From UHGV virus genome UHGV-0011768: a stretch of DNA of 50,190 bases. One strand, 5' to 3'. The first letter of the stretch is position 1, and the number at the start of each line of letters is the position of its first letter. A program made the position numbers and the translations under genes. This document shows positions 1 to 50,190 of the stretch, in pieces. This DNA comes from a virus. Under the pieces are notes generated by a model. That model was not told the DNA's origin. It saw only the letters and a program-made list of their open reading frames with translations, and did no database searches.

Positions 1-77
1 ATGTGAGCCCTGATGTTATCGCTATACCAGTTCCCAGGATCACCTTTACTGCCCGGCGCCCAATTTCGGAAAAACTG
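1..77. repeat. Terminal inverted repeat, copy B (exact reverse complement of 50114..50190)
   Basis: Read directly: bases 1-77 are the perfect reverse complement of 50114-50190; identity breaks at 78/50113. Repeat runs to the window edge so true length may be larger. Confidence 0.9.
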
Positions 78-119: not shown

Positions 120-695
120 ATGCCTTCCATTCCGATGATGTACACTTTTGACCCGCATACCCGTGTCCATACTGGGAGCCGTCCTGCCCAGGTGGTGGGC
201 GGCAAGGCGTTGACGCAAAGCTCCTATGCCACCACGATGCCGCCGCCTGCCTCGATCCCGGAAGGCCACGTAGCCCGCTGGACAGGGACAGCCTGGGAAA
301 CGGTAGAAGACCACCGCCAGCATATGGATAGCAAAGGTACCAAAACCGGCGGCACACCATACTGGCTGCCCGCCAAAGGTGATGACTGGCAGAGCCCACC
401 CCGCTACACCGATGATCTGGGGCCGCTTCCTTCCGGCGCTGTCACGGTGCGCCCGGAAAAGCCAGCGCCGACGGAAGCAGAGCTTTTTCAACAGCTCCGC
501 GCCGAGCGTGACCGGCGCCTGTCCGCCACGGACTACCTGTTGATGCCGGACTACCCGCTGAATGATACGCTCAAGGGGGCTGTGCAGCTCTACCGTCAGG
601 CCCTTCGGGATCTCCCGGCCCAGTCCGGTGCGCCCTGGGATGGCGGTGGCGAGGCCACGCCGTGGCCGGAGCTGCCTGCCGATCTCAAGGCATAG
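120..695 (+). CDS. tfa: Tail fibre assembly chaperone (lambda Tfa / Mu U family), 191 aa
   Basis: ATG at 120 preceded by AAGGA 7 nt upstream. Recognisable similarity to lambda Tfa (VEDHRQ, DLGPLPSG, W..L..W motifs and conserved C-terminal region). The listed ORF 3..695 opens inside the inverted repeat; the internal ATG gives a Tfa-sized product. Confidence 0.75.
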   Translation: MPSIPMMYTFDPHTRVHTGSRPAQVVGGKALTQSSYATTMPPPASIPEGHVARWTGTAWETVEDHRQHMDSKGTKTGGTPYWLPAKGDDWQSPPRYTDDLGPLPSGAVTVRPEKPAPTEAELFQQLRAERDRRLSATDYLLMPDYPLNDTLKGAVQLYRQALRDLPAQSGAPWDGGGEATPWPELPADLKA

Positions 696-891: not shown

Positions 892-1116
892 ATGTGCCCG
901 TGGGCACATAGTTGGGAAGGGGATTAGGCCAAATTGGGCACATTTGGCACATTTTTAATTTGAAAAGATATGTTATTTCAATATGTTAATATGCAGAAAC
1001 GGGGCCATGCTGGCCCAGCGGCTTTACAAGATGGCTATATTTTTATTCATTGTTTTCAGTATGTTGCGATGCGCCGTCTCTGCACCCTGTTTTGGGCACA
1101 TGCAGCTTGGGCACAT
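892..1116. repeat. Putative attP: TGGGCACAT arm-type repeats flanking an AT-rich core
   Basis: TGGGCACAT at 901, 935, 945 (variant), 1094 and 1108. Inverted copy ATGTGCCC at 892-899 forming a palindrome with 902-909. AT-rich 955-1075 with ATATGTTA x2. The two right-hand copies lie within the int 3' end. Confidence 0.4.
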
Positions 1117-2185
1117 CTGAGATGCTGGGGAGTGCCTCGACCGCGGCCCTTTTCTGCTTGTCCATCACATACTGGTAATGGGTCAGGAGCATCGTTGGGT
1201 TGCTGTGTCCCATGAGGCTTGCCACAGTGCCCACGTCCACACCGGCCGCGACCATCTCCGTGCCGAAGGCATGGCGCAGATCATAGGGGCGGATACGGCG
1301 GGTTATTCCGGCCCGGCACAGGGTATTCGTCCATGCCCTGCATATCCTGTCCAGAGGCCTGCCGTTGTAGCTGACAAGGTAGTCCACGCCTTCTTGCCTG
1401 TCCTGATCGCGCCATGCCTGGAATACGGGCAGGAGGCTTTCCCGGATAGGCACCTCACGCCACGGCGCTTCCAGGTTTTTCTTGGCCCCGTGGACGCGCA
1501 AGACGCGGCGTTCCAGGTCAACGTCTTCCCATGTCAGGGAAAGGAGCTCCGAGCGCCCTACACGCACGCCAAGCTGGGCCCCAAGGATGATGACCCTGAT
1601 GATATGCGGAGAGGCATGGGCTAGGATGGCGTGCAGCTCTTCTGGTGTCGGCGGTATGAACTTCTCATAGTGAGCCGGCGGCAGCTTGGGGAAGACCACG
1701 GCATCACAGAAGCCGTTGGTGTGGCACCAGCGCAAAACGCTTTTCAGGACCTTGATGTAGTCCCTGACGGTGACGGCCTTGATCGGTCTTTGCCGGAGCT
1801 TTTCTACCACGGCTTCGATGTCCCTTGTGGTGATCTGGGTTATCGGTGTGGCTCCTAGGAGCTCCAAGGGGGTACGCATGCACTTCATTTGCCATTGCAG
1901 CCCGACCTTGGTAAACTGCTTCTGCTTCAGGTAGGCAAGGTAGCATGTCTCCAGTGTGAGTTCCTGGGGAGCTTCTTCCTGCTCTTCGCTTTCTCCTTTC
2001 TCCCTTTCGAACGATTCCCTGTCAAACCTGATACGGTGTTTGATCAGGGAATCGTGCTTTTCAGCTTCTCGCTTCGTCAAAAAATTCGCGCACTCCCGCT
2101 TCCCGGTGATGGGATTGTTCCAGTAGCATTGCCACGGTGAGGCGCGGCCCTTCCGTTCACGTATGGCCATGATGTCCTCCATCAC
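1043..2185 (-). CDS. int: Tyrosine integrase (phage integrase family)
   Basis: 380 aa. C-terminal catalytic region with R...HxxR...Y context (YDLRHAFGTEMVAAGVD...LMGHSNPTMLLTHYQYV). GTG/ATG start at 2185/2182. Confidence 0.9.
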   Translation of the reverse strand: MMEDIMAIRERKGRASPWQCYWNNPITGKRECANFLTKREAEKHDSLIKHRIRFDRESFEREKGESEEQEEAPQELTLETCYLAYLKQKQFTKVGLQWQMKCMRTPLELLGATPITQITTRDIEAVVEKLRQRPIKAVTVRDYIKVLKSVLRWCHTNGFCDAVVFPKLPPAHYEKFIPPTPEELHAILAHASPHIIRVIILGAQLGVRVGRSELLSLTWEDVDLERRVLRVHGAKKNLEAPWREVPIRESLLPVFQAWRDQDRQEGVDYLVSYNGRPLDRICRAWTNTLCRAGITRRIRPYDLRHAFGTEMVAAGVDVGTVASLMGHSNPTMLLTHYQYVMDKQKRAAVEALPSISDVPKLHVPKTGCRDGASQHTENNE

Positions 2186-8183: not shown

Positions 8184-8861
8184 CTAAAAAGGCACACCGT
8201 CCGTCCCGTAATCAGGCGCACGGTCGGCATACCCGCCGGAGGGGTATCCGGTGTCAGCATAGCCGACGGACTGTCTGGGGGCCTGTTGGCGCGGCTGCTG
8301 GTCGCCCACCACGGGGCCGTCGGTGATGACCTCGCCGCCGTTCATGATCTCCTGATATTCCTTGTCCGTGCAGGGGAGGATGCGGCCCAGGGTATTCGAC
8401 CAATACATGCGCCCGTCCCTGCCCTCGTAGGGCTCCCTGCTGATGCCCAGACGGGCCGGGAACTCCATGCCGTCCAGATCGCTCCAGCTATTCAGGACAC
8501 GCTTGCGGTCTGCCTCCGGGCTCTTGTCCTTGGGATCAACACACCGGACAGCTTCCACGATGGCCCGCAGGGTACGTCCGCCGCTGCCGCAGGCTTTCTG
8601 CTGGCCTTCTGTGAGGCGGATGTTCTGGGCTCTGCTGGGCAGGGTGATATTTTCATACCAGGCAACGCCCTCGTAGCTCCCTGCTGCCACTTCCAGCCTG
8701 CAAAAAAGCTGGAGCAGGCCGGTCTTGGCCATAGCCACCATTTCGTCGTCACGGCTGGCGTATTTGGGCTTCTCGATGGTGAGGCGCACCAGCACACGGC
8801 TGCCGCCCGGGACGGGTCCGTAGGCGCTTTTCTGTTCCTGTTCCTGGCTGAGGTCGATCAT
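8184..8861 (-). CDS. Putative ssDNA-binding protein partner of Sak4 (SSB-like acidic tail ...DYGTDGVPF)
   Basis: ATGA-coupled to the Sak4 gene. C-terminal Gly/Tyr/Asp-rich tail ending in PF like the SSB protein-interaction tip. The body has no SSB OB-fold motifs I can verify. Confidence 0.4.
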   Translation of the reverse strand: MIDLSQEQEQKSAYGPVPGGSRVLVRLTIEKPKYASRDDEMVAMAKTGLLQLFCRLEVAAGSYEGVAWYENITLPSRAQNIRLTEGQQKACGSGGRTLRAIVEAVRCVDPKDKSPEADRKRVLNSWSDLDGMEFPARLGISREPYEGRDGRMYWSNTLGRILPCTDKEYQEIMNGGEVITDGPVVGDQQPRQQAPRQSVGYADTGYPSGGYADRAPDYGTDGVPF

Positions 8862-9721
8862 TTGCGGTATTCTCCTTCGCTTGCTTCGTTGAGGGCATCG
8901 TGGAATGCCTGCCACGTCTTGTCGTGTCCGATGGTGATAGATTCAGGCAGCGGCCACCGGCTCTTGGCAAGGTACGCAGGGCGCTCCTGCGTGTAGATGA
9001 CGCGCTCTCCTTTGCCGATGGCCTTCCCTTTGCCGCCGTTCTCCCCGCTGATGACCTTGGCCTTGTAGTTGAGGAACAGCAGCATCTCGGCCCATTCCGT
9101 CCAGAGGGCGGCGGCCCGCTTGTGGAGTTTGATGTTGTATTTCTGGTAGGGGTCGGCATCCGGCGGGTCGAAGGTGACGGGCACGGCGTGGGCGATGCAG
9201 ACGATGTGCATACCGCGTTTCTCGCGCAGCATGTCGAGGCCGGTCTGGATGGCCTTCCATTTATCGTCCACTTTGATGTACCCCTTGCCGAAGCCGAAGT
9301 CCTCGATATTCACCTTCCCGCCTTCGCTGCAGACCTCTTTCCAGACAAACGGCTCGGCCCAGTCCAGGGAGTCCAGGATCAGCGTCTTGAAGCTGTGCTT
9401 GCCATTGAGGAGGGCATTCAGGGCGTCCCGCATGTCCTTCATGGATCTGCCGACCTGCGGGAACGTGGGAACGTCGAGCGCCCCGGCGCCGTCTTCGGTG
9501 CGGAGCAGGATAGGGGCAGGCCAGGTGGCGGCGAAGGACGTTTTCCCAACGCCGGGGACACCATAAACAACGACCTTCTGTGGGGGGAATTGTTTGCTGC
9601 TCACGATGGCTTCCAGGGAAAAAGGGGCAGGATTGAAGCCGAAAGCCTCTTCAACATCCTTGACCTTCTGCTTCATCGCAGAATCGCCGGCCTGCTCCAA
9701 AAGCGTCGCTGCTTGTGTCAT
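8858..9721 (-). CDS. sak4: Sak4-like RecA-fold ATPase (AAA_24 family single-strand annealing/recombination protein)
   Basis: Walker A GVPGVGKTSFA, Walker B-like LILDSLD. Size and architecture fit phage Sak4/AAA_24. Confidence 0.7.
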   Translation of the reverse strand: MTQAATLLEQAGDSAMKQKVKDVEEAFGFNPAPFSLEAIVSSKQFPPQKVVVYGVPGVGKTSFAATWPAPILLRTEDGAGALDVPTFPQVGRSMKDMRDALNALLNGKHSFKTLILDSLDWAEPFVWKEVCSEGGKVNIEDFGFGKGYIKVDDKWKAIQTGLDMLREKRGMHIVCIAHAVPVTFDPPDADPYQKYNIKLHKRAAALWTEWAEMLLFLNYKAKVISGENGGKGKAIGKGERVIYTQERPAYLAKSRWPLPESITIGHDKTWQAFHDALNEASEGEYRK

Positions 9722-9856: not shown

Positions 9857-10204
9857 CTACCAGGCCGCGGCTTCGCGGCGGAGTTCGGCGTCCAGGCTGC
9901 GCAGGGTGGCCTTGTAGGATTGCGCCATGTGTTCCTGCATGATGAGCTCGGTGACGGGAACAAATCTTTGCCGCACGGCGTCCGGGGTGAAACAATTGGA
10001 CCCCTGCTTGAGCAGCACGACCGGATCACCGGGGGCGTCGATTTCGAAACACTGCATCATGCAGAGGCCGAAGGTCTGGGGCAGTGCGTCCCCGTAGACG
10101 ACCGGGCGCCAGTTCTCGCAGTTACGGCAGCAGACATTTTCTTCTCCGAACCTGTCGCACAGGTGGTCAAATTCATCCATCATGGACATAGCTATTTCTC
10201 CCAT
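9857..10204 (-). CDS. Hypothetical Cys-rich protein
   Basis: 115 aa (CDRFGEENVCCRNCENW). Protein-like composition. Chosen over the overlapping 9651..9995 ORF. Confidence 0.4.
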   Translation of the reverse strand: MGEIAMSMMDEFDHLCDRFGEENVCCRNCENWRPVVYGDALPQTFGLCMMQCFEIDAPGDPVVLLKQGSNCFTPDAVRQRFVPVTELIMQEHMAQSYKATLRSLDAELRREAAAW

Positions 10205-17402: not shown

Positions 17403-18182
17403 ATGAGAGCACGCGACATCAAGCCAGGATTTTACAAAAGCGATCAGCTTGCCGAATGCAGCATGACTGCCCGCCTGCTGTTCCCCGGCCTCTGGATGCT
17501 TGCCGACAGGGAAGGGCGTCTCGAAAATCGCCCCAGGAAGATCAAGGCCGAGATTTTCCCCTTCGATGACGTGGACGTGGCTCCGCTGCTGGTGGAACTG
17601 GAGAATGCGGGGCTGATCCGCACCTACGAGGCGAACGGAACGGCCCTTATCTGGATTCCTCAGTTCAAGCGTCACCAAAGTCCCCACAAAAACGAGAAAA
17701 ACAGCGAGTTGGCCGCACATCCTGACGACCTTTCCGCGACATGCCCGGTGCAGGAACAGGCCAAGGATAGAACAACTCCCGAAAAGGAGGGAACTGCTCC
17801 CGTAATTTCGGGACAAATCCCGCTGACTCCCTCTTCTCTGACTCCCTCTTCACTCTCTCCGAGAGATAATACCCCCCTTACCCCCCACGGGGGGGACGCC
17901 TTCGGCGATGCCGGTGGTTGTTTGGCTGCGGCACAGCCCGATGATGGCGGAAAGCCAAGGGCGCAGCGGAAGAGATTCGTTCCCCCCACGGTGGAGGAGG
18001 TCGCTGCCTACTGTCGCGAACGGCAGAACGGGATCGATCCTGAGGCGTTCGTGGATTTCTACACGGCCAAGGGCTGGCTCGTGGGAAAATCGCCGATGAA
18101 AGACTGGCGCTCAGCAGTGCGAACATGGGAGCACGACAGGAGGAGCCAGACCAGGCAAACGTACCAGATGCCGATAAACTAG
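17403..18182 (+). CDS. Putative replication initiation/organiser protein (N-terminal wHTH, C-terminal FxPPTxEEV...GW domain)
   Basis: N-terminal LFPGLWMLADREGRLE...AGLIRTYE. C-terminal FVPPTVEEVAAYCRERQNGIDPEAFVDFYTAKGWLVG, typical of phage replication proteins. Sits immediately upstream of the primase-helicase. Confidence 0.55.
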   Translation: MRARDIKPGFYKSDQLAECSMTARLLFPGLWMLADREGRLENRPRKIKAEIFPFDDVDVAPLLVELENAGLIRTYEANGTALIWIPQFKRHQSPHKNEKNSELAAHPDDLSATCPVQEQAKDRTTPEKEGTAPVISGQIPLTPSSLTPSSLSPRDNTPLTPHGGDAFGDAGGCLAAAQPDDGGKPRAQRKRFVPPTVEEVAAYCRERQNGIDPEAFVDFYTAKGWLVGKSPMKDWRSAVRTWEHDRRSQTRQTYQMPIN

Positions 18183-32885: not shown

Positions 32886-33773
32886 TTATCTCATTGCCAG
32901 CATGGTGCGGGCGGCGGATTCCAGGGCCCGCAGGGAGTAGTCCAGCGCACCGGCGCAGTCTTCCATGCTCTGGAAGGCGGTCAGGCCCGTGCGGCGGGCC
33001 GGGCTGAACATGTCTCCGGGCTTGCGGACAGCGGGCAGCGCCTTGCGCGCCAGCAGGAACAGGGCTTCCTCGTGGCGGTGGATATGGCGGATATGATCCC
33101 GGATGGCGGCAAGATGGCCTTCCACGTCATCGGGGGATGCGGGGGAAGAGGGCAGGGCCGTGGCCGGGGCCGGAGCGGGCAGCGCGTCGATACGCTTCTG
33201 CACCCAGTCGATGGCGTCCGGTATCCACTCCTGCGGCAGCTCCTTGATATTGGCGAGGTTGAAGGCGGCCTTGAGCTGGTTCCAGCAGGCGGCGAAGGGC
33301 AGGCCGGAGACCTGCGCCCACGAGCCCACCAGCGCACGCAGTGGCTTGCGGTCTTCGGTGGTGGACGGCGTGATGGACAGGGTGCCGGTGAAGTCGTCGG
33401 GGGTGGGGGCGGAAGAGGCGGCGTGCTGTTCGGCGTCGAGCTTGTCCAGCACGTCCAGCACCCAGCGGCGGAAAGCCTTGGCCACCGGCGTGCGGGCGAA
33501 CATGGCAACGAGGTGGCAGCCGCGCAGGGAGAAGATGCGGCAGCGGCCTGCGCTCAAATTTGGGAAAACCTCGTTTTGAGGTTCTACGACGTTTTCAATG
33601 AGTTGCGTCATGTCACTTGTAAATTCATCGGCATGACGCTGGTAGATTTGAGCAACCTTGTCCTCACGGGAAAGGCTCAGAGCGCGGGCCAGTTCAGCGG
33701 CGCGAATCCAGAGGCTGTTTTGATGGGGGATGGGGGTCAGGGTGATGTCGTTGAAGGTCAGGGCCATTTCCAT
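32886..33773 (-). CDS. Bro-N domain protein, paralog 2 (cargo gene between head and tail modules)
   Basis: N-terminus MEMALTFNDITLTPIPHQNSLWIRAAELARAL and RIFSLRGCHLVAMFARTPVAKAFRRWVLDVLD block shared with 5203..6054. Confidence 0.7.
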   Translation of the reverse strand: MEMALTFNDITLTPIPHQNSLWIRAAELARALSLSREDKVAQIYQRHADEFTSDMTQLIENVVEPQNEVFPNLSAGRCRIFSLRGCHLVAMFARTPVAKAFRRWVLDVLDKLDAEQHAASSAPTPDDFTGTLSITPSTTEDRKPLRALVGSWAQVSGLPFAACWNQLKAAFNLANIKELPQEWIPDAIDWVQKRIDALPAPAPATALPSSPASPDDVEGHLAAIRDHIRHIHRHEEALFLLARKALPAVRKPGDMFSPARRTGLTAFQSMEDCAGALDYSLRALESAARTMLAMR

Positions 33774-34020
33774 GATACAAACTCCAAGATTTTTCTATTG
33801 GCCCTTGCTGAGAAATAGCAAAGGCCGGGAGCTAGAAACCGTCTTGGAACGGCGGGCATATTCCCCTTGCGGGTATTGTATTAGCCCACTCCCGGCCATC
33901 AGATAGCCGACATCATAGCCCCAAAAAAGGGCAAAGAAAAAGCCTTGACTTACGGGAAAGGCGTCCGTCCAAGAGGAGTTTCTAGGCTCCGTAAGAAGAG
34001 GACGCCACAAAATGAGGGAA

Positions 34021-34053
34021 ATGTCAAGGGGAAGGGCGGCCAGGAGGCCGCCC
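34021..34053 (-). terminator. Possible terminator (minus strand) after the endonuclease I gene
   Basis: GGGCGGCC-TCCT-GGCCGCCC on the minus strand followed by TTCCCCTT; T-tract is weak. Confidence 0.35.
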
Positions 34054-34064
34054 CTACTGCGATT

Positions 34065-34814
34065 TTACCATAACCCCGCTTGCTGGCAGGGTTCCTTGAC
34101 GAATCGATTTTCATTGCCCTGGAGCCGTTCTATCCGTTTGGCGCGGGTACACTCCCACTGATCCACAGGATACATCTTGTCCCAGGCACGGAAGAGCTGC
34201 TCCTGCTGTCGGCTGAGGCGGTACTTGGCATAGCTATCAGCCATGTAGAACGCGGCGCGGGCCACCTGTCCTTTTGAACGGGCGGGAGGCTCGAACCTGT
34301 TCCCGTCCACCTTGGCCTCACAGGAGCCAAAGGCCGAGACAGAGCCGGGAAGCTCCGAATATTGCCTGTTGCTGCGGAGAGCATTTACAGCACCGATGGC
34401 GGGGAACAGGTTGTACATGTCAGCCTGCATGTGGCGGTACTCCTTGTTCACCTTCTCAGCGCACTTACGCCCTTTGAACGCCCTCCCCTTGCTCACGCAC
34501 TGAGGATGTCCCTCCCGCCATTCCACGAAGGCACGACCGAAGTTTTCAGCGGGGACAGCGTGCTCCCATTCGACCTTGCGAGCACGTTTTTGGTATTTGT
34601 CCGTCGCGAACCCTACAGGCAAGTCGATGTTTTTCTTTTCATCGAACAGGGCTCCACAATAGACCGTGACCCGGTGGTCAAAGTAGACCTGTTGCTCCAG
34701 CATCTTTTTAGCCTTTGAGAAGCTGTCGTTTGTCTCGTTACCGGCGGCGGTGGCTAGGCTGGCTACACAAAAGAGCAGGGCAGCAGCAATAAAAAGTGTC
34801 TTGATTTTTTGCAT
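34065..34814 (-). CDS. endA: Secreted endonuclease I (EndA/Endonuclease_1 family periplasmic/extracellular DNase)
   Basis: Signal peptide MQKIKTLFIAAALLFCVASLATAAG, then VYCG...VEWEHAVPAENFG...ADMYNLFPAIGAVNALRSNRQY pattern of the endonuclease I family. Lower GC than phage backbone. Confidence 0.7.
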   Translation of the reverse strand: MQKIKTLFIAAALLFCVASLATAAGNETNDSFSKAKKMLEQQVYFDHRVTVYCGALFDEKKNIDLPVGFATDKYQKRARKVEWEHAVPAENFGRAFVEWREGHPQCVSKGRAFKGRKCAEKVNKEYRHMQADMYNLFPAIGAVNALRSNRQYSELPGSVSAFGSCEAKVDGNRFEPPARSKGQVARAAFYMADSYAKYRLSRQQEQLFRAWDKMYPVDQWECTRAKRIERLQGNENRFVKEPCQQAGLW

Positions 34815-34825
34815 TATCTTCTCGC

Positions 34826-34850
34826 AAAAAAAGCCCCGCCGGAGCGGGGA
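34826..34850 (-). terminator. Rho-independent terminator (minus strand) between membrane-protein gene and endA
   Basis: Minus strand CCCCGC-TCCG-GCGGGG then TTTTTTT. Confidence 0.6.
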
Positions 34851-34856
34851 CATGGT

Positions 34857-35516
34857 TTACTGAACTAGGTATTGATCAATCCATTGAACCTCATCTGATT
34901 CAGCAGGATAGATAATAGCCGCACCGTATGAGACCTTTTTCCCCGTTCTTTTGCAGGTAGCAGAAGCAATAATCATGGTTTTTCTTTTTTTCATTTGATT
35001 TTCGCTGACCCCTTGCTCTTCCATACCTTTTAAAACGGCTAATGCTATAGCCTGTGATGCAAATTGAATCATTTCTTTTTGCAGGCTTTTGTTGAATTGC
35101 ACCTCAATAGCATAGGTCGTACCACCTTCAGCACCAAACTGATGCCACGAGATGTCGTACCTCCCTCCAGTTCTGCCGTACTTCTCATTCAGGGTCGCCG
35201 TAATCTGGCGCATGTCGCGCCTAAGCTTTTGAGTCAGTTTGTCTTTTGAAATCTTGTTACTACTTACCGGGGCACGGGATTCTACACGCGTCCCTTCCGA
35301 AGTTGTATTTATGACATTGGGCTCATTTCTTCCACTAGAGAAATACCAAATAAGAAGGAGTATCGCTAAAGGAATGCCGAATGCCTTCCAGATAGAATCC
35401 TTTTTCTTTTCGAGGGATTTCCTATCTTCGTCTGTGACAGGGCGGCCACATTTGGGACAGGCCGAAGCGGAGCTAGATATTTTGTTTTTGCAATCCGGGC
35501 ATTTAAACATAGCCAT
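34857..35516 (-). CDS. Zn-ribbon / single-TM membrane protein with extracytoplasmic domain
   Basis: CPDCKNK...CPKCGRP ribbon, TM IPLAILLLIWYF, about 150-aa C-terminal domain. GC roughly 42 %, clearly foreign to the phage backbone. Confidence 0.5.
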   Translation of the reverse strand: MAMFKCPDCKNKISSSASACPKCGRPVTDEDRKSLEKKKDSIWKAFGIPLAILLLIWYFSSGRNEPNVINTTSEGTRVESRAPVSSNKISKDKLTQKLRRDMRQITATLNEKYGRTGGRYDISWHQFGAEGGTTYAIEVQFNKSLQKEMIQFASQAIALAVLKGMEEQGVSENQMKKRKTMIIASATCKRTGKKVSYGAAIIYPAESDEVQWIDQYLVQ

Positions 35517-35614
35517 CTCTATTCACCCTCCTTCGCTTTTTTCGCGGCGTCATACTGCGTGGCCGTGGCGCGGATACGGTCGCCCAGGGGCAGAATGTCA
35601 TCCAGCTTGTCGAT

Positions 35615-36613
35615 TTACACCTTGGCGTCCTTGTTCTCCCCGTCGAACAGACCGACGAACCAGGGCCGTTTGTTAAAGTGCAGGCGCAGCAGGGGCTTGA
35701 ACCGGCCGTCGAGGACGATATTGCAGTACGCCTGCCAGTCCTGGAGCTTGATACGTTCGGCGTCCACTACGCCCATAAGCAGCGATTTGACCAGGTAGAA
35801 GGCTTCCCGCTCTTCCTCCGTTGTCACGATATTGGAGGTAACCGGTTTTTCTTGAGCCTCTTCGGGAAGATCCGCAGGCAGGCTTTCAGGGGCTTCCGGC
35901 CGCTGGGTCATGGCACTTTTGAGGCGCTCATTGATGCGGTCATTGATGAACTGATCCAGCGCGGCCACGAGGATCGGCGTAAACCGTTCGCGGACTTTCT
36001 GGGTGATCATCCCGTCATAGGTCTGGCTGATGAAGAAACGGGCAAAATCCTCGTGAGGATTGTCCATCTGTTCGGCCATGATGCGCTTGAACTCGCGGTT
36101 GTATTTCAGTTCGTTGGCCGCGCTCAGGCAGGCATCGCGGTCAAATTTGCCCTTGGCCAGCTTGCGCAGCTCGGGGATGAGCGTCTCGTCCATATCGGAC
36201 AGGCAAAACTCCATATAGGGCTTGCTGTCCATGCGGTTGGTGTCTTCGAGATCGGAGTAGAAGCGGTAGCGGTTCCCGTCCGTCAGGATGGCAATAGGGG
36301 CTTCCGTGCCGTGGAAATACAACTGGAGCTGGTTGCATTGCTTGGTGTCCAGTGCGGTGCCGAAAGCCTTGCACTCAATCAACAGAATCGGCTTCCCGTC
36401 AGCGAGGATGGCGTAATCAACACGAGCGTCTTTGTACTCACCGATAGGGGCTGAAAATTCCGGCACCACTTCGCTGGGGTTGAATACGTCGTAACCAAGG
36501 GCTGCAATGAACGGCATCACCAGTGCGTTTTTCGTGGCCTCTTCCGTCCCCAGGGTGTCCCCGATATTCCGTACTTTTTTAGTCAGCCCTGCGATTTTTT
36601 CAGAAAAATCCAT
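35615..36613 (-). CDS. Standalone PD-(D/E)xK nuclease-fold protein with HsdR-N-like N-terminal domain
   Basis: MPFIAALGYDVF...EYKDARVDYAILADGKPILLIECK matches the type I restriction HsdR N-terminal nuclease fold (D...E.K). About 180-aa uncharacterised C-terminal half. Own promoter TTGCGA-17-TTAAAT and AGGGAGG RBS upstream. Confidence 0.55.
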   Translation of the reverse strand: MDFSEKIAGLTKKVRNIGDTLGTEEATKNALVMPFIAALGYDVFNPSEVVPEFSAPIGEYKDARVDYAILADGKPILLIECKAFGTALDTKQCNQLQLYFHGTEAPIAILTDGNRYRFYSDLEDTNRMDSKPYMEFCLSDMDETLIPELRKLAKGKFDRDACLSAANELKYNREFKRIMAEQMDNPHEDFARFFISQTYDGMITQKVRERFTPILVAALDQFINDRINERLKSAMTQRPEAPESLPADLPEEAQEKPVTSNIVTTEEEREAFYLVKSLLMGVVDAERIKLQDWQAYCNIVLDGRFKPLLRLHFNKRPWFVGLFDGENKDAKV

Positions 36614-39102: not shown

Positions 39103-40980
39103 ATGAGCGTCAATGCCGACAAACTGGTGCAGATCGTCCCGCGTGTCATCGACGCGGGCACGTCCGGCCTCACATTCTCCGGCCTGTTCCTGACACAAAG
39201 CGAGCTGCCGCCCACCGGGCGCGTGCTCCAGTTCGCCAGCGCCCAGGCCGTGGCGGACTATTTCGGCTCCGAGACCGACGAGGCCCGGGCCGCGCGGATC
39301 TATTTCCAGGGCTACACCAACACGCAGTATCTTCCCGGTTTCCTGTTGTTCGCCCCGTACCGGGCGACGGCGGCCGCCGCGTGGCTGCGCGGCGCGGCCT
39401 ATGAGGGCACGCTGGCCGATCTCAAGCTGGTGCGCGACGGCACCCTGAAAATCACCATCGACGGCATCGAGCGCACGGCCAACGGTGTGGACTTCTACAC
39501 GGCCACCAGCCTGAGCGACTGCGCCCAGCGTTTGCAGACGGCCCTCTCCCAAACGGCGGAGATCGAGGCCACGGCGGGTAAATTGACCGGCGGCCCCGTG
39601 GCGAACGTGGAGCCCCTCAAAGCCGTCAGCGCGGGCAAGCTGGACATCAGCGTGGACGGGACCGGGCAGAACCTGACCGCCCTGGATTTTTCGAGCGTCG
39701 CCAGCCTGACGGACGTGGCCGGGGTGCTCACCACGGCCCTGAGCGGCAAGGCCACGGTCACGGTCTCCGGCAATTCCCTAGTCATCACGTCCGCCACCAC
39801 GGGCGCGAGCTCCACCGTCTCCTATGCCTCGGACCCCGAGCCCACCGGCGGCGTGGCTGATCTGGCGGAAGCCCTGGGCCTCACGCAGGATACCGGCGCC
39901 GTCAGCACGGCGGGCACGGCTGCCTATCAGCCCAAGGCGCCCGTCGTGACCTATAGCTCCCAGACGCAGGCATTCCAGATCACGTCCGGGGAGACGGGCA
40001 GCGCGTCCGCCGTGGCCTACGGCCAGAGCGCGGGCAGCGGCACGGATCTTTCCCGGGTGCTCAACCTGACCGAGCAGCTGGGGGCCGTGCAGAGCGAGGG
40101 CACGGGCGGCCAGAGCCTCACGGACTGCCTGACAGGCGTGCTCAAGTCCGCTCGCGACTGGGTGTCGTTCTCCACCATCTGGGAGCCGGAGCGTGCCGAA
40201 AAGCTGGAGCTGGCGACCTGGTGCTCCGGGCATGACACCCGCTTCGTCTATGTCATGTGGGACACCGACAACACGGCCCGCGTCCAGGGCAGCACCGCCA
40301 GCGCCGGCTACGCCATCACCCACACGCTGGAACTGGACGGCGCCTGCTGCGTCTGGAACACGCTGGACATGGCCGCGGGCGTCATGGGCGCCATTGCCTG
40401 CCTCAACTTCGACCAGCGCGAGGGCCGCACGACCCTGGCCTTCCGCCAGTTCGAGGGCGTGGCCGTCACCTGCGACGATGACGGGGACTACGACGCCCTG
40501 ATCGCCAACGGCTACAACTGCTACGCGGATTTCGCCACGGCCTCGGCACAGTTCAAATTTTTCCAGAACGGACAGGTGTCCGGCAAGTTCGACTGGCTGG
40601 ACACCTACTGCAACGCCATCGCCTTGAAAGACGCGCTCCAGCTCAACATCCTGGATCTGTTCGCCGCCGTGCGCAGTCTGCCCTACAACGAGGACGGCTA
40701 CGCCAGCGTCCGCACCGCCTGCCTGGATACCATCAACCGGTTCATCAACTTCGGTGCCATCAGGACGGGCATCAGCCTGAGCCAGACGCAAAAGGTGCAG
40801 CTGTTGCAGGAGATCGGCAAGGACGTGAGCCAAACGCTGGAGAGCGCCGGCTGGTACATGCAGATCACGGACCCCGGCGCTGTCATCCGCGGACAGCGGC
40901 AGTCCCCCAACTGCGCGTTTTATTACATGGATGGCGGCAGCATCCAGAAGATCGTGATGAGCGCCACGGCCATCCAGTAG
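39103..40980 (+). CDS. Tail sheath protein (contractile tail)
   Basis: 625 aa immediately upstream of tube, chaperone-frameshift and tape-measure genes. N-terminal LVQIVPRVIDAGTSGLTF typical of sheath N-termini. Confidence 0.6.
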   Translation: MSVNADKLVQIVPRVIDAGTSGLTFSGLFLTQSELPPTGRVLQFASAQAVADYFGSETDEARAARIYFQGYTNTQYLPGFLLFAPYRATAAAAWLRGAAYEGTLADLKLVRDGTLKITIDGIERTANGVDFYTATSLSDCAQRLQTALSQTAEIEATAGKLTGGPVANVEPLKAVSAGKLDISVDGTGQNLTALDFSSVASLTDVAGVLTTALSGKATVTVSGNSLVITSATTGASSTVSYASDPEPTGGVADLAEALGLTQDTGAVSTAGTAAYQPKAPVVTYSSQTQAFQITSGETGSASAVAYGQSAGSGTDLSRVLNLTEQLGAVQSEGTGGQSLTDCLTGVLKSARDWVSFSTIWEPERAEKLELATWCSGHDTRFVYVMWDTDNTARVQGSTASAGYAITHTLELDGACCVWNTLDMAAGVMGAIACLNFDQREGRTTLAFRQFEGVAVTCDDDGDYDALIANGYNCYADFATASAQFKFFQNGQVSGKFDWLDTYCNAIALKDALQLNILDLFAAVRSLPYNEDGYASVRTACLDTINRFINFGAIRTGISLSQTQKVQLLQEIGKDVSQTLESAGWYMQITDPGAVIRGQRQSPNCAFYYMDGGSIQKIVMSATAIQ

Positions 40981-40990
40981 GAGGAGCGAC

Positions 40991-41437
40991 ATGGACAACT
41001 TCGGAAAACCGACCATCACGGCGGCCAATAGCACGTTCTTTTTGACCGTGCCTGGCCTCTACGACAGCCCGGTCAAGATCGAGGGCTACAGCACTGACGC
41101 CATGGTGAGCGGCGAGGCCATCACCCCGCTGGTGGCCGAGATGGGCGTTGACGGTCATCTCTCCTTCGGCTGGACGCCCACCGCCAAGACCATCACCGTG
41201 ACGCTGGCAGCCGACAGCCCCAGCCGCCAGGTCATGGAGGACTGGGTGATGTACCAGGACGCGAAACGCGAGTCCGTGCTGTGCAACGCCGAGTTCTGCC
41301 TGCCGGGCATCGGCCGCAAGTACATCGGGATGCGCGGGGGCATCACTAGCTCTCCGCCCATGCCCGGAGCCAACAAGACGCTCCAGCCCACGGCCTACAC
41401 CATCCAGTTTGAAAAATGGACGCCTGCCGTCATCTAG
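40991..41437 (+). CDS. Tail tube protein
   Basis: 148 aa, position between sheath and chaperone. Confidence 0.55.
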   Translation: MDNFGKPTITAANSTFFLTVPGLYDSPVKIEGYSTDAMVSGEAITPLVAEMGVDGHLSFGWTPTAKTITVTLAADSPSRQVMEDWVMYQDAKRESVLCNAEFCLPGIGRKYIGMRGGITSSPPMPGANKTLQPTAYTIQFEKWTPAVI

Positions 41438-41449
41438 GAGAGTTCCATC

Positions 41450-41935
41450 ATGCTCAACGAGAAATTCATTACCATCGAAAGCGGCCGCGACCAGGGAAAA
41501 ACGTTCGTCGTCCGGGAGATGCCCGCCAGCAAGCTGGAGAAGTGGTCCGCCCGGGCCATGCTGGCCCTGTTCAATGGCAACCTTCCCGCCGACATTGCCG
41601 AGCAGGCCAGGGGCAGCAACGCCGTTGCCCTGGCCCAGGCTGTGGCCTCTGGTCTTGGCGGTATCAGCTGGGAGCTGGTGGAGCCGCTCTACGACGAGCT
41701 CCTGGGCTGCGTGTACCGCGTCCCTGATCCGTCAACGCCCGACAAACGGGTGCAGCTCAACCCCGCCAACGTGGACAATATTATCCAGGACATGAGCACG
41801 CTGCTGCGCCTGCGTGCCGGTGTGCTGGAGGTGTGTTTCGATTTTTTCGGCAGGGACGGTGGGCTGTACTCCCGCCTGACAACAGCCGCCGACCGCCTGA
41901 CCTCCGGGACTACGAAGCCCTCCCGGCCTGCATAG
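41450..41935 (+). CDS. Tail assembly chaperone (gpG/gpE analog)
   Basis: 161 aa upstream of tape measure. Contains slippery heptamer T-TTT-TTC at 41842-41848. Confidence 0.6.
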   Translation: MLNEKFITIESGRDQGKTFVVREMPASKLEKWSARAMLALFNGNLPADIAEQARGSNAVALAQAVASGLGGISWELVEPLYDELLGCVYRVPDPSTPDKRVQLNPANVDNIIQDMSTLLRLRAGVLEVCFDFFGRDGGLYSRLTTAADRLTSGTTKPSRPA

Positions 41936-42078
41936 CCGTGCCCATAGCGCGCGGGATGGCGTCGCTCCGGGACATGCAATGCCATTACAGCCTGGGCGAT
42001 GCCCTGGACCTGTACGAGATAGCCCGCGTGGATGCCTATAACCGCGCCCAATGGGAGAAATTCCATGACCGTCCGTGA
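41450..42078 (+). other. Predicted -1 programmed-frameshift fusion product (gpGT/gpE' analog)
   Basis: Zero frame ...GAT TTT TTC GGC...; -1 slip at T TTT TTC continues FFRQGRWAVLPPDN... to a stop at 42078, overlapping the tape-measure start. Confidence 0.5.
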
Positions 42079-43690
42079 ACTCGTCGTCAAACTCGTGCTC
42101 GATAGCCTGGGGTTCCGGGAGCGCGTCCAGGATGCCCAGGGGGAACTGGACAAGCTGGGCACGACCTCGAAGGAGGCCACGGACAAGGCCGCCAAAGGCA
42201 TGGACAAAGCCGCGGACAAGGCCGACGACCTGGGCGGCAAGGCCCGGGAAGCCGGGAAATCCATGCAGCAGGCCGCCGAGCGCGGGGAACGCGGGTTCGA
42301 TGGTCTGCTGGGCACGCTCGGCAAGGTGGCCGCCACCCTGGGCGGCCTGGCGGCCATACAGGCCACGGTCTCGGGCTATGTGCAGGCCGTGGCCGAGATC
42401 GAGGAGACCAGCGACATGCTGGGCATGAGCATGGAGGAGTGGCAGGGCTGGGCCTATGCCGCCAAACAGGCCGGGCTGGAAGCCGAGGACGTGCGCGACC
42501 GGTTCATGGATCTGGGCGACTGGATGACGGATCTGAACGTCAACGACGCCGGGCCGCTCAAGGACTTTGCCGAAAAGACCAAGACCAGCTTCAAGGACGC
42601 CAAGGGCGCCACGGTCTCTATGGAGGAAGGTCTCATGCGCCTGGCCGATACCGTGGGCAAGATGGACCGCCAGCAGGCGACCTCGTGGCTCCAGCAGATC
42701 GGCTTCGACGAAAAGACCACGCCCCTGATCCTCAAGGGCCGCAAGGCCATCGAGGAATATATCAAGGTGGGCAAGGAGCAGGCGCTCTACACCAAACGGG
42801 ACGCCGAAAATGCCCGCAGGATGCGCGAGGCCTGGCAGAGTATCACCTACGTCTACAATGCCGTCTCCGGGGCCATCCTGCGGGCGTTGGGGCCTGCATT
42901 CGAGTGGTTGGCGGAGAAGGTGGGGAAGGTCTCCACCTGGGTGCGGGAAAACGAAGACTCCCTGGTGGTGTTCATCACGGCCCTGGCCGCCGCCATTGGC
43001 CGCCTCCTCACCCCGGCTTTGTGGGGTATGGCGAAGGCAGCGGCCGCCGCGTTGTGGCCGTTCGCTCCGCTCATCCTGGGGGCTCTGGCCCTGGCTGAGG
43101 CATTCGATGATTTGTGGGCCTTCGCCTCCGGCGGCAACTCGATACTCGAAAACCTCATGCGCGCGTTCGGCGCGACGGACAAGACGGTCGAAGAGTTTCG
43201 GCAGACCGTGCGCAGTGCGGTTGGTTTTGTGCTCGACCTGTGGGACGCGCTCACCGGCAACGAAAAAGACAGCCAAGCGGCGCTTGAGCGCGTGAAAGCA
43301 CAGGTCAAGGCGGTTGCCGACGCGATCTCCAATTTTGTGCGCAGCATCGGGCAATGGGTCGAGGACCTCTTGCCGCAGTGGATCAAGGACCTCCTGATCG
43401 GAGACAGCAAGCCCCCGGCGAGTGCCGGCAAAGCAAGCCAGTCTGCCGGGGGCGGCTATGACGGCCTTGACGCCGCGGCTACCGGCGGTGTGGGTCCTCT
43501 TATGAGCTACCGCGCCGGGGATGCGGCCAGGCCGGCGGGCGGCAATGTGACGAACAACCGCAAAGCCGAGTTCAATGTCCAGAATATGACCGTTGTCACA
43601 AATGCGCAGACCGGAGAGGGAACGGGGCGAGAACTCGCCCGTGGCTTTGAAAACCAGGTCGCGCAGGCGGATGGCGCCAACGGGGTATAG
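42065..43690 (+). CDS. Tail tape measure protein
   Basis: Long helical Ala/Lys/Glu-rich protein with hydrophobic central segments. GGGAGAAA RBS. Confidence 0.75.
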   Translation: MTVRELVVKLVLDSLGFRERVQDAQGELDKLGTTSKEATDKAAKGMDKAADKADDLGGKAREAGKSMQQAAERGERGFDGLLGTLGKVAATLGGLAAIQATVSGYVQAVAEIEETSDMLGMSMEEWQGWAYAAKQAGLEAEDVRDRFMDLGDWMTDLNVNDAGPLKDFAEKTKTSFKDAKGATVSMEEGLMRLADTVGKMDRQQATSWLQQIGFDEKTTPLILKGRKAIEEYIKVGKEQALYTKRDAENARRMREAWQSITYVYNAVSGAILRALGPAFEWLAEKVGKVSTWVRENEDSLVVFITALAAAIGRLLTPALWGMAKAAAAALWPFAPLILGALALAEAFDDLWAFASGGNSILENLMRAFGATDKTVEEFRQTVRSAVGFVLDLWDALTGNEKDSQAALERVKAQVKAVADAISNFVRSIGQWVEDLLPQWIKDLLIGDSKPPASAGKASQSAGGGYDGLDAAATGGVGPLMSYRAGDAARPAGGNVTNNRKAEFNVQNMTVVTNAQTGEGTGRELARGFENQVAQADGANGV

Positions 43691-43691
43691 C

Positions 43692-44273
43692 ATGAGCATT
43701 TTCAGTGTGCTTGGGCAGGGTATAGCGGGCAACTGGTCCATCTACGACAAGGACGGAGCCGCGGCCGTGCCGTTCGATACGTTCTTTGCCCTGACCCGCA
43801 AGGACGAGGGCAAGGTCACGTCGCATCCCACGGAGCCCAACGGCTTTTTTGCCTACAACAAAGTGGACAGCCCGGGCACCGTTGGCGTGGTGCTGGGCAT
43901 CACCGGCAACAGCGAGACGCTGGGGCGCACCCTGGAGGCCCTGGAGAAGCTCAAAAGCTCCACCGATCTCGTCAGCATCGTCACGCCGGAAAAAACGCTG
44001 CTGGACTACACGCTGGAGTCCTACGACTACCAGCGCAGCGCGGACAGCGGTGTGGATCGCCTGCTGGTCTCCCTCTCCCTCGTGGAGATCCGGCAAGTGG
44101 CCCAGGAATACAGCAACGAAAAGATCCCCAAAGCCAAGCAGGCCGCCGACAGCAAAACGACCGAGGCGGGCAAGCAATCCGCCCAGCAGGCGGACGCGGC
44201 CACCCAGGGCAGGTGGAGCAAAAAGCACAACAACATGCTTTTAGGGCCGCGCGAAGAAAAGGCCGTCAAATAG
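43692..44273 (+). CDS. Hypothetical tail/baseplate protein
   Basis: 193 aa directly after the TMP stop. Confidence 0.4.
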   Translation: MSIFSVLGQGIAGNWSIYDKDGAAAVPFDTFFALTRKDEGKVTSHPTEPNGFFAYNKVDSPGTVGVVLGITGNSETLGRTLEALEKLKSSTDLVSIVTPEKTLLDYTLESYDYQRSADSGVDRLLVSLSLVEIRQVAQEYSNEKIPKAKQAADSKTTEAGKQSAQQADAATQGRWSKKHNNMLLGPREEKAVK

Positions 44274-44283
44274 AGGGAACGCC

Positions 44284-44625
44284 ATGCAGGAAATACCGTT
44301 GCGCGCCACGGGCAACCAGACGCTCCAGGTGGTGCTGGAGGGCCAGAACTGTTCCTTGCGCCTCTATACCCGCAGTTTGTCGGATGGCGTGGAGACGCTG
44401 TTTTGTGACCTGAGCATCGACCAGGATCCCGTATTTTACGGCTGCCCGTGCCTCGACGGCCTGCCCATGCCGCTCTATGCGTGGCTGGGCATGACCGGGC
44501 AGCTCGTTTTTATCGACATGGAGGGCGACGAGGCCCCGCACTGGTCCGGGCTCGGGAGCCGCTGGAAGTTGCTCTACATGAGCCCGGCCGAGGCCGACGC
44601 CTACCGCGAAGGGACGATACTGTGA
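44284..44625 (+). CDS. Hypothetical small baseplate protein
   Basis: 113 aa, GTGA coupling to hub gene. Confidence 0.4.
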   Translation: MQEIPLRATGNQTLQVVLEGQNCSLRLYTRSLSDGVETLFCDLSIDQDPVFYGCPCLDGLPMPLYAWLGMTGQLVFIDMEGDEAPHWSGLGSRWKLLYMSPAEADAYREGTIL

Positions 44626-45533
44626 GCAGTTTTACCAAAAAAATGCTGGAGGCCCGCATCACACTGGCCGAGGGCGGGTTCAACCCCGGAACGGGAGAAG
44701 CCGCCAACACCAAGGTGGTGCGCCTGGGCATGGACGCCGAGATCAGCAAGCCGGGCGGCAAGGAAAAGCCCAAGTGTACGCTGAAGATCTTCAACCTGCC
44801 CCTGGACGACATGCAAGTGTTGACCACGCTGGCCTTCGACCCGCTGGCGGTCAAAAAAAACCGCCTCACGCTCATGGCCGGCGATGCCGACGGCATGACG
44901 CAGGCCTTCGTGGGCGACATCACCAGCGCGGTTCCCCGATTCAGCGCCGATGCTTCCAGCGTGTTCGAGGTCACGGCCATCACCGGCTATGTGGCGAGCG
45001 TGACCCCGGCCAAAACGCTGACGGCGGCCGGTGCGCAGGACGTGGCCACGCTGTTGCAGGGGCTCGCAAAGCAGATGGGATTTGCCTTTGTCAATCGCGG
45101 TGTGTCCGTGACGGTGCGCAACATCGCCCTCATGGGCGGTCCTATGGAGCAGGCCCGACAGCTGGCGGACGAGGCCCGCATCGACCTGATCCTGGACGAT
45201 GGGGAGATGATCGCCGCCCCGCGCGGCAAACTGCGCCAGGATGACGCCCAGGGCAGCACGCCGGTGCTCAAGGACAGGACGGGCCTGATCGGCTTCCCCG
45301 GATTCGACGCCAAGGGCGTGGTGGGGCGCTGTCTGTATGAGCCGCGCCTCATGCTGGGCGGCCCGGTGCGCATCGAGAGCATGGTCCCCAAGGCAAGCGG
45401 CCTGTGGCGCGTCACCAGCCTGAGCCATAAACTGCAAGCCAATTACGCGGGGGCATCGGCCTGGGAGACCAGTTTCAACGCGACGTATCCCAACCAGCAA
45501 AAGGGCGACGCCAAGAAGGACGCCAAAAAGTGA
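44622..45533 (+). CDS. Baseplate hub protein (P2 gpD / Mu gpP-like)
   Basis: 303 aa. Position upstream of gpV-like spike. Assignment from size and order. Confidence 0.45.
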   Translation: MSSFTKKMLEARITLAEGGFNPGTGEAANTKVVRLGMDAEISKPGGKEKPKCTLKIFNLPLDDMQVLTTLAFDPLAVKKNRLTLMAGDADGMTQAFVGDITSAVPRFSADASSVFEVTAITGYVASVTPAKTLTAAGAQDVATLLQGLAKQMGFAFVNRGVSVTVRNIALMGGPMEQARQLADEARIDLILDDGEMIAAPRGKLRQDDAQGSTPVLKDRTGLIGFPGFDAKGVVGRCLYEPRLMLGGPVRIESMVPKASGLWRVTSLSHKLQANYAGASAWETSFNATYPNQQKGDAKKDAKK

Positions 45534-46276: not shown

Positions 46277-46286
46277 GAGGCGGATC

Positions 46287-48654: not shown

Positions 48655-49380
48655 ATGGCTATCCGCTGGAATATCATTGATTTTCGGGCGGCAGGCGATA
48701 TTCGGGAGCTGCCGGATATCCGCCGGGGGCAGCTCTGGCCGTCCACGGTCATCTCTCAGTACGACAATTCCCCCCGTCTGTGCGCGTTGCTGGCTGGTCT
48801 GGAAGGTCAGATAGATCCTTTTTGGGACATCCAGGAATTTTTGACGGAGGTCTTCGATCCGCGCACGGCCGTGGGCTGGGGCCTGGACTGCTGGGGCCAG
48901 ATTGTGGGCATCAGCCGCGACATCCAGCTGGCTGGCACCAACACGGCGTTCGGCTTTGACGGCTCCGGTCTGGAGCCCTTCGACCAGGCGCCGTTCTGGA
49001 GCTCGGACGCCACGTCCTACTACCGCCTGACGGACGAGGCCTACCGGCAGCTGATCTTCCTCAAGGCCGCCATCAATATCAGTGACGGGACGCTGGCCAG
49101 CCTCAACCGCATCATGTATACGATGTACGGCTCCCGCGGCACGGTCTGCGTGATCCATGTGGGCACCATGCGCATCCGGTTTTTCTTCGACTTCTATCTA
49201 CAGCCGTTCGAGCGTGCGCTGATCGCTCGTGATGACGTGCCGCCCAAGCCCGCGGGCGTGGGCTTCGATCTGTACGAGGTCAACCGCGCCGAGACGTTCG
49301 GCTTTGACGGCTCTAGCCTGCAACCCTTTGACCAGGGCAATTTCGCCCCCGGAGGACCGCAAGATGCCTATTCCCTCTAG
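48655..49380 (+). CDS. Baseplate/tail-fibre-associated protein (DUF2612-like)
   Basis: 241 aa. Internal duplicated (F/A)GFDGSxL(E/Q)PFDQ motifs. Precedes tail fibre. Confidence 0.4.
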   Translation: MAIRWNIIDFRAAGDIRELPDIRRGQLWPSTVISQYDNSPRLCALLAGLEGQIDPFWDIQEFLTEVFDPRTAVGWGLDCWGQIVGISRDIQLAGTNTAFGFDGSGLEPFDQAPFWSSDATSYYRLTDEAYRQLIFLKAAINISDGTLASLNRIMYTMYGSRGTVCVIHVGTMRIRFFFDFYLQPFERALIARDDVPPKPAGVGFDLYEVNRAETFGFDGSSLQPFDQGNFAPGGPQDAYSL

Positions 49381-50190
49381 CCCGGACCTGCTCACCAATG
49401 TGCTGGGGTACGCGGCTGACCTTAATTCCATACCGGCCACGACGCCCAGCGGCAGCGGGGCTTTCTCGTATCAGGCCGGGTTCCCGGCCATTACCGGGTT
49501 CCCCCTGACGGCAGGGGGGATAGCCCCCTCGCGCCAGGACTTTAACGGCGTTTTTAACCTGATCGGGCAGCATCTGTTCTTTCTGCAGTCCGGCAGCCTC
49601 TACCCGTGGAGCGCGTCTCTTGACTATCTGGTGGGGGCCCACGTCCTGGGCAGTGACGGCAAGGAATACATCGCCCAGAAAAGCAGCGGGCCAGACGTGC
49701 CCAGCGCCCCAGCGGTCAATCCCGTGGGGGACGAGTCCGGCACCTGGCTGGCGGCTACTCTGGCGTATGGCGCGCCTCTGGCCACGTCGTCCTCCCCGGG
49801 GCTTATGCAGCCTGACGGCATCACGACGTTTGTGAACTCCTCCGGCGTCCTTTCCACCACCCTGGACCCTACTTGGATCGGGGTGCCCCGCTACTGGCGC
49901 AGCACGACGCTCCCCCCGAACCATTGCTGGGCAAATGGGGATTTTGTGGAGTTCGCGGACTGGCCTGAGCTGCACGCAGTGTACGAGGCGGGCGGCCTGG
50001 AAGGCATGCTTCTGGGCTGGGATGCTACGGAAGAAGAGCAAGCCGCCAACCTGGGCAAATGGCGGCCCGATTCATCTATCCCTACGGGATTGTACACACC
50101 TGCCCTGAGCGGACAGTTTTTCCGAAATTGGGCGCCGGGCAGTAAAGGTGATCCTGGGAACTGGTATAGCGATAACATCAGGGCTCACAT
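49364..50190 (+). CDS. Tail fibre protein, N-terminal/constant part; runs off the window end through the inverted repeat
   Basis: ATG 49364 with GGAGG 8 nt upstream. Open in frame to the last base, reading ...GDPGNWYSDNIRAH across 50114-50190. Confidence 0.65.
   Translation, partial: MPIPSSPDLLTNVLGYAADLNSIPATTPSGSGAFSYQAGFPAITGFPLTAGGIAPSRQDFNGVFNLIGQHLFFLQSGSLYPWSASLDYLVGAHVLGSDGKEYIAQKSSGPDVPSAPAVNPVGDESGTWLAATLAYGAPLATSSSPGLMQPDGITTFVNSSGVLSTTLDPTWIGVPRYWRSTTLPPNHCWANGDFVEFADWPELHAVYEAGGLEGMLLGWDATEEEQAANLGKWRPDSSIPTGLYTPALSGQFFRNWAPGSKGDPGNWYSDNIRAH

Follow-up and report, generated by a model that had tools for sequence, protein, structure and literature searches.

The two ends of the window (the whole stretch of DNA that was analysed, 50,190 nt) are very probably the assembly scar of a real 654-bp segment, which flips and provides the tail fibre of the phage with alternative tips. 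Direct comparison showed that positions 50114-50190 are the exact reverse complement of positions 1-77 and that the identity ends at 78/50113; in this respect, a previous interpretation made from the sequence alone (the sequence-only reading) is borne out. These ends form the sole long inverted repeat of the window, the runner-up being 35 nt long at 80%, and a perfect match of 77 nt cannot be of chance origin. A 19-nt core within it occurs twice in exact form in the window, compared to an expectation of 0.01. The copy at the 3' end (50114-50190) lies in frame within the fibre open reading frame (ORF), which begins at 49364 and is cut off by the 3' end of the window; its 5' counterpart (1-77) stops 42 nt ahead of the ATG of tfa at position 120. 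The same reading had located one copy in frame in this ORF and the other just upstream of tfa, and both locations were confirmed. The features of the region are:

48655..49380, plus strand: baseplate wedge protein (DUF2612 / Phage_Wedge1, by domain), directly upstream of the fibre
49364..50113, plus strand: constant part of the tail fibre (250 aa, by sequence), ending ...PTGLYTPALSG right before the site
50114..50190, plus strand: left inverted repeat (50114-50139), then 51 nt from the beginning of cassette SvB, which continue the fibre in frame
50114-50132, plus strand: 19-nt perfect core CAGTTTTTCCGAAATTGGG of the left repeat, encoding Q-F-F-R-N-W
1..77, minus strand: start of SvB (1-51) and right inverted repeat (52-77; core 59-77), next to the tfa flank
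120..695, plus strand: tail-fibre assembly chaperone tfa (191 aa), PF16778
1005..1020, no strand assigned: attP core CCATGCTGGCCCAGCG, 16 nt, common to both prophage junctions (contigs L001 and L007)
1043..2185, minus strand: tyrosine integrase (380 aa, Pfam Phage_integrase), the sole recombinase in the phage

The exact Tfa protein is present on seven public metagenome contigs, among which is L001 (41.7 kb, k = 141). This independent contig is 99.99% identical to the window over 40810-50139 (9.3 kb) and 100% identical over 1-1020, and it spans the junction: a 26-nt repeat (L001 9305-9330) is followed by 602 nt, the inverted copy of the repeat (9933-9958), 42 nt, and tfa. The segment is 654 bp long with 26-bp inverted repeats, whose copies are complementary at 25 of 26 positions, the single mismatch being at position 20. 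The full genome, which is composed of window positions 78-50113 and the 654-bp segment, measures 50,690 bp. On the plus strand of L001, the fibre runs on for 138 codons, which constitute the tip SvA and give a total of 388 aa. On the minus strand, an 86-codon exon starts from the right repeat; it constitutes the tip SvB and would yield a 336-aa fibre. Both exons translate in frame; they are convergent and overlap by 24 nt at their stop codons. The segment contains these two C-terminal exons and nothing else, and the piece missing from the window, which does not include tfa, carries only their remainder. The sequence-only reading had joined the window ends via a short unseen piece, in which alternative fibre C-termini and a Gin/Hin-like recombinase were to be looked for. 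L001 supplies this piece with about 0.58 kb and the C-termini were found in it; a recombinase of this type is absent.

Positions 1-77 of the window correspond to L001 9882-9958. Both 77-nt copies are one and the same DNA stretch, namely 51 nt of one cassette plus the 26-bp repeat, which the assembler attached to both flanks. Positions 50114-50190 are the left junction of orientation B and positions 1-77 are the right junction of orientation A; the window combines the left junction of one orientation with the right junction of the other, and no single molecule has both. In the window, one exon is attached to the fibre as well as to tfa, and this requires that the sample contained reads of both orientations: a de Bruijn assembler generates such ends only if it is supplied with reads in both orientations. 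The number 77, which is a common largest assembler k, would then be the k-mer length of the assembler and not the length of the repeat. On two points the sequence-only reading has to be revised: it had postulated genomic repeats of at least 77 bp, while L001 contains 26-bp repeats with a 19-bp perfect core, and it had considered that an incoming exon could end in the repeat at 1-77, which is the start of the alternative exon on the minus strand. Its proposal that mixed orientations broke the assembly at the repeats is supported by contigs of both orientations. When both window ends were used as DNA queries against 50,697 phage records, no match was obtained, and the exact 77-mer was not found in IMG/VR.

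On the tfa side, orientation A is present in L001, L002, and L004. Orientation B is present in L005 and L006, which stem from two other assemblies; here, the reverse-complemented start of SvA abuts the tfa flank, and this junction is the one predicted for the flipped state. The right junction of orientation B rests on these two short contigs with 12 cassette-specific nt and one variant base; for the exact phage, the left junction of orientation B (fibre plus SvB) is known only from the window itself. The flanks of contigs having opposite orientations are 99.5-100% identical. In every contig, the repeat mismatch at position 20 stays with its own cassette, which places the exchange inside the 19-nt perfect core. 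The unitig L003, which originates from a further sample and was presumably built with a k of about 31, starts at the first base common to both orientations and ends at the att crossover. Such ends are expected if both orientations as well as integrated and excised forms were present in this sample. The structure of the contigs thus points to switching within a sample. Note that positions 1-18 of L006 are GATGTGTATAAGAGACAG, a remnant of the Nextera transposase adapter which was kept in the public contig.

In its N-terminal 160-190 aa, the fibre resembles annotated tail-fibre proteins from myophages of Acinetobacter and Ralstonia at an identity of about 30%. With the partial fibre as the query, 1,130 homologues were retrieved; common to them are the N-terminal part and a conserved block that ends in ...PTGLYxPxLxGQFFRNW. 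Past this block, the homologues diverge fully for about 90-140 residues and then reconverge on ...ILYLGRPA; both SvA and SvB end in a conserved ...ILYLGxxx. SvA-like and SvB-like tips each occupy the expressed position in other phages (P0028 and P0085). Pfam and PDB sequence searches gave no match for either full fibre form, and an AlphaFold2 model of the 388-aa fibre had a mean pLDDT of 48, which is too low for use. Judging from position and variability, the tips probably bind the receptor, and a swap of tips would alter receptor specificity; the region before the site may be collar-like. As tfa lies outside the invertible segment and is present as a single copy, one chaperone serves both fibre tips.

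Two observations concern the surroundings of the fibre gene. P0061, P0063, and P0077 have only the first 130-150 residues (approximately) of the fibre in common; beyond the shared part, they continue to a glycine-rich C-terminus (416 and 394 aa) or to a region (300 aa) with motifs that look similar to a tail-collar domain. This point of divergence marks one more mosaic joint of the fibre, ahead of the shufflon site. In addition, the gene 47869-48645, which encodes a coiled coil and closely precedes the wedge and fibre genes, contains a perfect 74-nt direct repeat (48258-48331 and 48405-48478, 147 nt or 49 codons apart); a heptad-rich stretch seems to have been duplicated here in frame and recently.

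With its two sites and two cassettes, the window phage represents the smallest form of a family of tail-fibre shufflons in Bilophila and Desulfovibrio phages. The loci collected were 25 from IMG/VR, 80 from metagenomes, and 7 from genomes; a direct-repeat pattern search contributed 10 extra loci, in which no new kind of recombinase occurred. None of the seven species-representative genome loci passed the strict inverted-repeat screen. An inverted copy of the site was found in 49 of the 63 loci that have at least 1.2 kb downstream of the site. The site TTTCCGAnnnTGG encodes F-R-x-W; its invariant 7-nt TTTCCGA precedes NNN-TGG and an inner arm that is conserved in part. The motif TTTC[CA]GANNNTGG occurs 287 times in 1.07 Mb, in both orientations and nearly always downstream of the constant part of the fibre. 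The sites form arrays of up to 11 per locus: L040 consists of four tandem invertible segments of about 580 bp, L090 has 11 sites, and in L116 and L123 five or six direct cassettes are followed by inverted ones. Within the arrays, direct-repeat sites are about 320 nt apart and are kept without collapse.

Every site is the start of a cassette. The complete cassettes number 309, have a median length of 97 aa, include 198 unique ones, and form 81 clusters at 60% identity; the strict x-YLG pattern at the C-terminus is present in 260 of the 309, and most misses listed are near variants such as AIYLG. The tfa gene always follows the last site, outside the array. Upstream of silent cassettes, only the end of the preceding cassette is conserved; due to this lack of conservation, the site is asymmetric. 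A site is found no more than 130 nt away from 30 of the 94 contig ends; in addition, there are several contigs of the family that fold back into the reversed constant region, which is the same scar as in the window. Near-identical phages differ only in cassette content. For the pairs L058 and L061 (10404-11600) as well as L035 and L075 (10386-10906), the flanks are 96-99% identical and the cassettes are dissimilar in either orientation; entire cassettes have been replaced at the sites between one genome and the other.

The codons of the site are informative. In the phage, CGA makes up 3.4% of the Arg codons and TTT makes up 28% of the Phe codons; the probability of TTT TTC CGA given FFR is 0.007. 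If the expressed gene contains the canonical site, further sites follow downstream in 51 of 52 loci; for a non-canonical fibre (QFLRCW or similar), further sites were found in none of 10 loci. These codon and locus statistics indicate that the site is under selection as DNA. With respect to isolates, the locus L016 of B. wadsworthia ATCC 49260 (NZ_JNJP01000025.1) belongs to a contig which ends 7 nt past the QFFR site of a related fibre (locus end 6475), and a second prophage of ATCC 49260 (L015/L041) has four sites. These findings hint at a switch that is active in pure culture.

Host-range switching by DNA inversion is textbook knowledge for Mu and P1, and recent work has extended it to phages of Bifidobacterium and Phocaeicola. 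As in Mu G, P1 C, e14 P, and p15B Min, inversion fuses a constant N-terminus of the fibre to alternative C-terminal exons; moreover, as in the Mu G / P1 C group, the crossover is inside the coding sequence, the frame is kept, and mixed orientations break assemblies. In contrast to this group (the Din family), the phage possesses no Gin, Cin, Pin, or Min gene and no serine recombinase. Whereas Din-family segments have their own tfa genes, a single tfa outside the segment is common to both tips here, and the 654-bp segment comprises two overlapping exons only. Inspection by eye in comparison with hix and gix identified no A-tract-CC-NN-GG-T-tract dyad of the hix/gix/cix type in the 26-bp repeat, the inner TCCRA-NN-TYGGA of which is weakly symmetric. 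The Mu G / P1 C layout assigned by the sequence-only reading was therefore abandoned: tfa is outside, the site is unlike hix/gix, and relatives contain shufflon-like multi-site arrays.

The R64 / IncI shufflon (Rci, sfx, PilV) likewise has short asymmetric sites at the constant/variable junction, which are conserved on the cassette side, and the relatives of the window phage resemble it in having multi-site arrays, both orientations, and cassettes of about 100 aa. Four to 11 sites exist in L040, L090, L100, L123, and L116, and the left arm is not conserved. The site is not identical to sfx: GTGCCAATCCGGTACGTGG (GTGCCAA + TCCGGTACGTGG) and TTTCCGAnnnTGG have only TCCG...TGG in common, and the spacing differs. 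Unlike R64, there is no adjacent Rci-like gene, the window phage has a single segment, and the target is a phage fibre instead of a pilin. Similarly, a dedicated Rin-like gene, as in the Rin shufflon of Bifidobacterium prophages, is missing. The second tail locus of Bifidobacterium Bb423phi2 / 689b-1 contains an inverted piece of about 500 bp, which carries the 3' end of a tail gene and is bounded by an 8-bp repeat; no recombinase flanks it, and the authors proposed a trans-acting invertase (PMC6109161). This locus is the closest published parallel, but it differs with respect to host phylum and the proteins, which are unrelated, and the case is based on two genomes, whereas the arrangement described here is family-wide and includes arrays and a defined DNA motif. 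A BV01-like Phocaeicola phage has a tail-fibre shufflon with its own flanking recombinase and the motif TGGGAGAACT (PMC13596623). This gut temperate phage also inverts multiple cassettes at the distal end of the fibre gene by means of short directional motifs; however, its motif is unrelated to our site, and no own recombinase is present in our case. Orphan invertible regions (the Mpi targets of B. fragilis; Bb423phi2) are comparable, as they have inverted repeats, both orientations, and no recombinase in cis. Altogether, the function corresponds to the idea of Mu G / P1 C, and the design is closer to shufflons.

In a Pfam analysis of 42 left-arm ORFs, Phage_integrase was listed a single time, and families of resolvases, of large serine recombinases, or of the IS110 type were absent. 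Precomputed Pfam assignments of the right-arm genes contained no Resolvase/Recombinase; all these genes are structural except for a small minus-strand island. Searches by means of tblastn and phmmer with Gin, Hin, and TnpR as queries gave no match in the window or in about 130 loci. In agreement with these results, the sequence-only reading had noted that a serine invertase is absent and that int is the sole recombinase. According to a profile search, many arrays have a tyrosine recombinase as a neighbour. The gene is 0.6-1.5 kb beyond the last site in at least 16 related loci; in about nine loci, it is located 564 nt past the last site, directly after tfa and on the same strand. These recombinases precede host genes (sensor kinase, PPDK, tRNAs) and score as generic integrases only. 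The ORFs which follow tfa in relatives were also considered as recombinases and dismissed, being DUF4942, metallopeptidase, DNA polymerase A, thymidylate synthase, and Bro-N. Next to integrases and in the att region, matches to the site or to its 7-mer did not exceed the chance level.

The integration site of the phage could be deduced from two contigs. L001 departs from the window at 1020 into comM (Mg-chelatase-like), with the core at L001 10886-10901; L007, the integrase of which is 96% identical, departs at 1005 into the other half of comM, with the core at about 17783-17798. The target of att is formed by the Walker-A 'KTMLAQR' codons of the host comM. The window is the excised or circular form, and L001 and L007 are the two prophage junctions.

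Several alternatives have to be weighed against a segment that is currently inverted at its site. The 77-bp repeats could be physical inverted terminal repeats of a linear genome, which is what tools seeking complete linear genomes flag on a contig, or a purely technical fold-back. The chance of either is practically negligible, as L001, L002, and L004 read through position 1, L001 passes 50113 into a different sequence, the prophage ends at the att core and not at the window ends, and both junctions were seen in independent assemblies made by other assemblers; a linear genome with inverted terminal repeats is refuted by the contigs spanning both window ends. It is very unlikely that the two orientations were fixed in separate, co-existing strains after an old inversion and do not switch at present. 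Every spanning contig does show a single orientation; however, the window requires both junction types in one sample, L003 breaks within its sample at the first base common to both orientations, opposite orientations have the almost identical flanks given above, and this pattern is found again in numerous phages and samples. Homologous recombination between the short repeats by host RecA, or by the Sak4-like annealing protein of the phage plus RusA, would require no dedicated enzyme. The phage encodes both an AAA_24 (Sak4-type) protein and RusA, no invertase was found anywhere, and the cassette-only differences between near-identical phages show that intergenomic exchange occurs at the sites. 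Nevertheless, this mechanism is improbable: the identity shared as a minimum extends over just 13-20 nt; on the outer side, identity breaks off abruptly and does so at one and the same base across many phages; rare codons are held constant as DNA, and this only in the presence of silent cassettes; and the many direct-repeat sites of the arrays are retained uncollapsed at the distance of about 320 nt. Moreover, one third of the contigs break at sites, which suggests frequent switching.

The lambda-type integrase of the phage (1043-2185) might itself flip the fibre segment, such that one enzyme performs both integration and host-range switching. The 50.7-kb genome encodes no other recombinase, tyrosine recombinases are found near the last site in the relatives mentioned above, including those directly after tfa, and the asymmetric site with its one-sided conservation and invariant TTTCCGA has the design of the sfx sites of Rci, which is a tyrosine recombinase. 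We consider this doubtful and do not favour the integrase as the candidate inversion enzyme, because its att core is unrelated to the site, the lone 9-mer common to the att region and the repeats being about as expected by chance. The array-neighbouring integrases share only 32-36% identity with that of the window and with one another and have different targets, yet the site is the same; about a dozen site-bearing loci have no tyrosine recombinase within 10 kb, and the genes behind tfa in these loci have no connection with recombination. Those recombinases that do lie beside arrays are followed by host genes and are thus positioned at prophage ends like ordinary integrases; in the integrated prophage, int is at the opposite end, approximately 50 kb away from the segment.

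The exchange is probably site-specific. Since the phage has no invertase and the target of its integrase is unrelated, the inversion enzyme would act in trans and most likely come from the host. As the same site travels with the fibre/tfa module across phages having different integrases, the enzyme may be common to their hosts. We tentatively propose, as a possibility that is somewhat less than even, a large family of recombinase-less fibre shufflons that share TTTCCGAnnnTGG despite unrelated integrases and different replication modules and depend for their inversion on an enzyme encoded in the chromosome of the Desulfovibrionaceae host. The overall reading of the switch itself is much firmer and very probable: the invertible 654-bp segment between the constant part of the fibre and tfa carries two promoterless convergent C-terminal exons, one orientation leading to the 388-aa fibre (SvA) and the other one to the 336-aa fibre (SvB). 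The exchange within the 19-nt core that codes for Q-F-F-R-N-W keeps both products in frame, and the single tfa outside the segment serves both tips. With both orientations in the sequenced sample, the assembler extended the fibre into SvB, extended tfa into that very end of SvB, and stopped, leaving the same 77-nt k-mer at both contig ends in opposite orientation. If a host enzyme does flip the segment, the bacterium and not the phage sets the rate at which the receptor specificity of its prophage changes.

In the literature searched, there was no description of such a switch in Bilophila or Desulfovibrio phages; these hosts are sulfide-producing gut bacteria that are linked to inflammation. 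The module is compact and portable: it combines an F-R-x-W site, cassettes of about 97 aa of at least 81 types, and one shared chaperone, and as it has no enzyme of its own, it raises the testable question of who flips the segment. For genome catalogues, the example indicates that 77-bp inverted contig ends should be taken neither for genome termini nor for a sign of completeness and that contigs of this phage family are expected to break at the sites.

Apart from the missing 0.58 kb (approximately), the window is in all likelihood the complete genome of a temperate myovirus of a Desulfovibrionaceae host. Its G+C content is about 60%. Among the species-representative genomes, relatives of the fibre occur in Bilophila wadsworthia, in Desulfovibrio isolates and MAGs, and in one MAG labelled Bacillota. 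The late region consists of terminase, portal, a Mu-F-like protein, capsid, an E217-like tail and baseplate, the gpV apex, and the DUF2612 wedge; the gene order, which the sequence-only reading had equated with the circular lambda map, is myovirus-like with an E217-type baseplate and not strictly that of lambda. In the left arm (1-24840), one ORF matches the anti-CRISPR family AcrIC5 (PF22147, E = 4e-9); this arm also encodes the Sak4-type AAA_24 protein (8858-9721), RusA, a DNA methylase, Lar, and a dUTPase. A minus-strand block between the capsid and tail modules (32886-36613) contains four genes, namely those for Bro-N, Endonuclease_1, a zinc ribbon, and an HSDR_N-like protein, and looks like an inserted accessory or defence island. 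The 34-36 kb bin has the lowest G+C content of the window (0.525).
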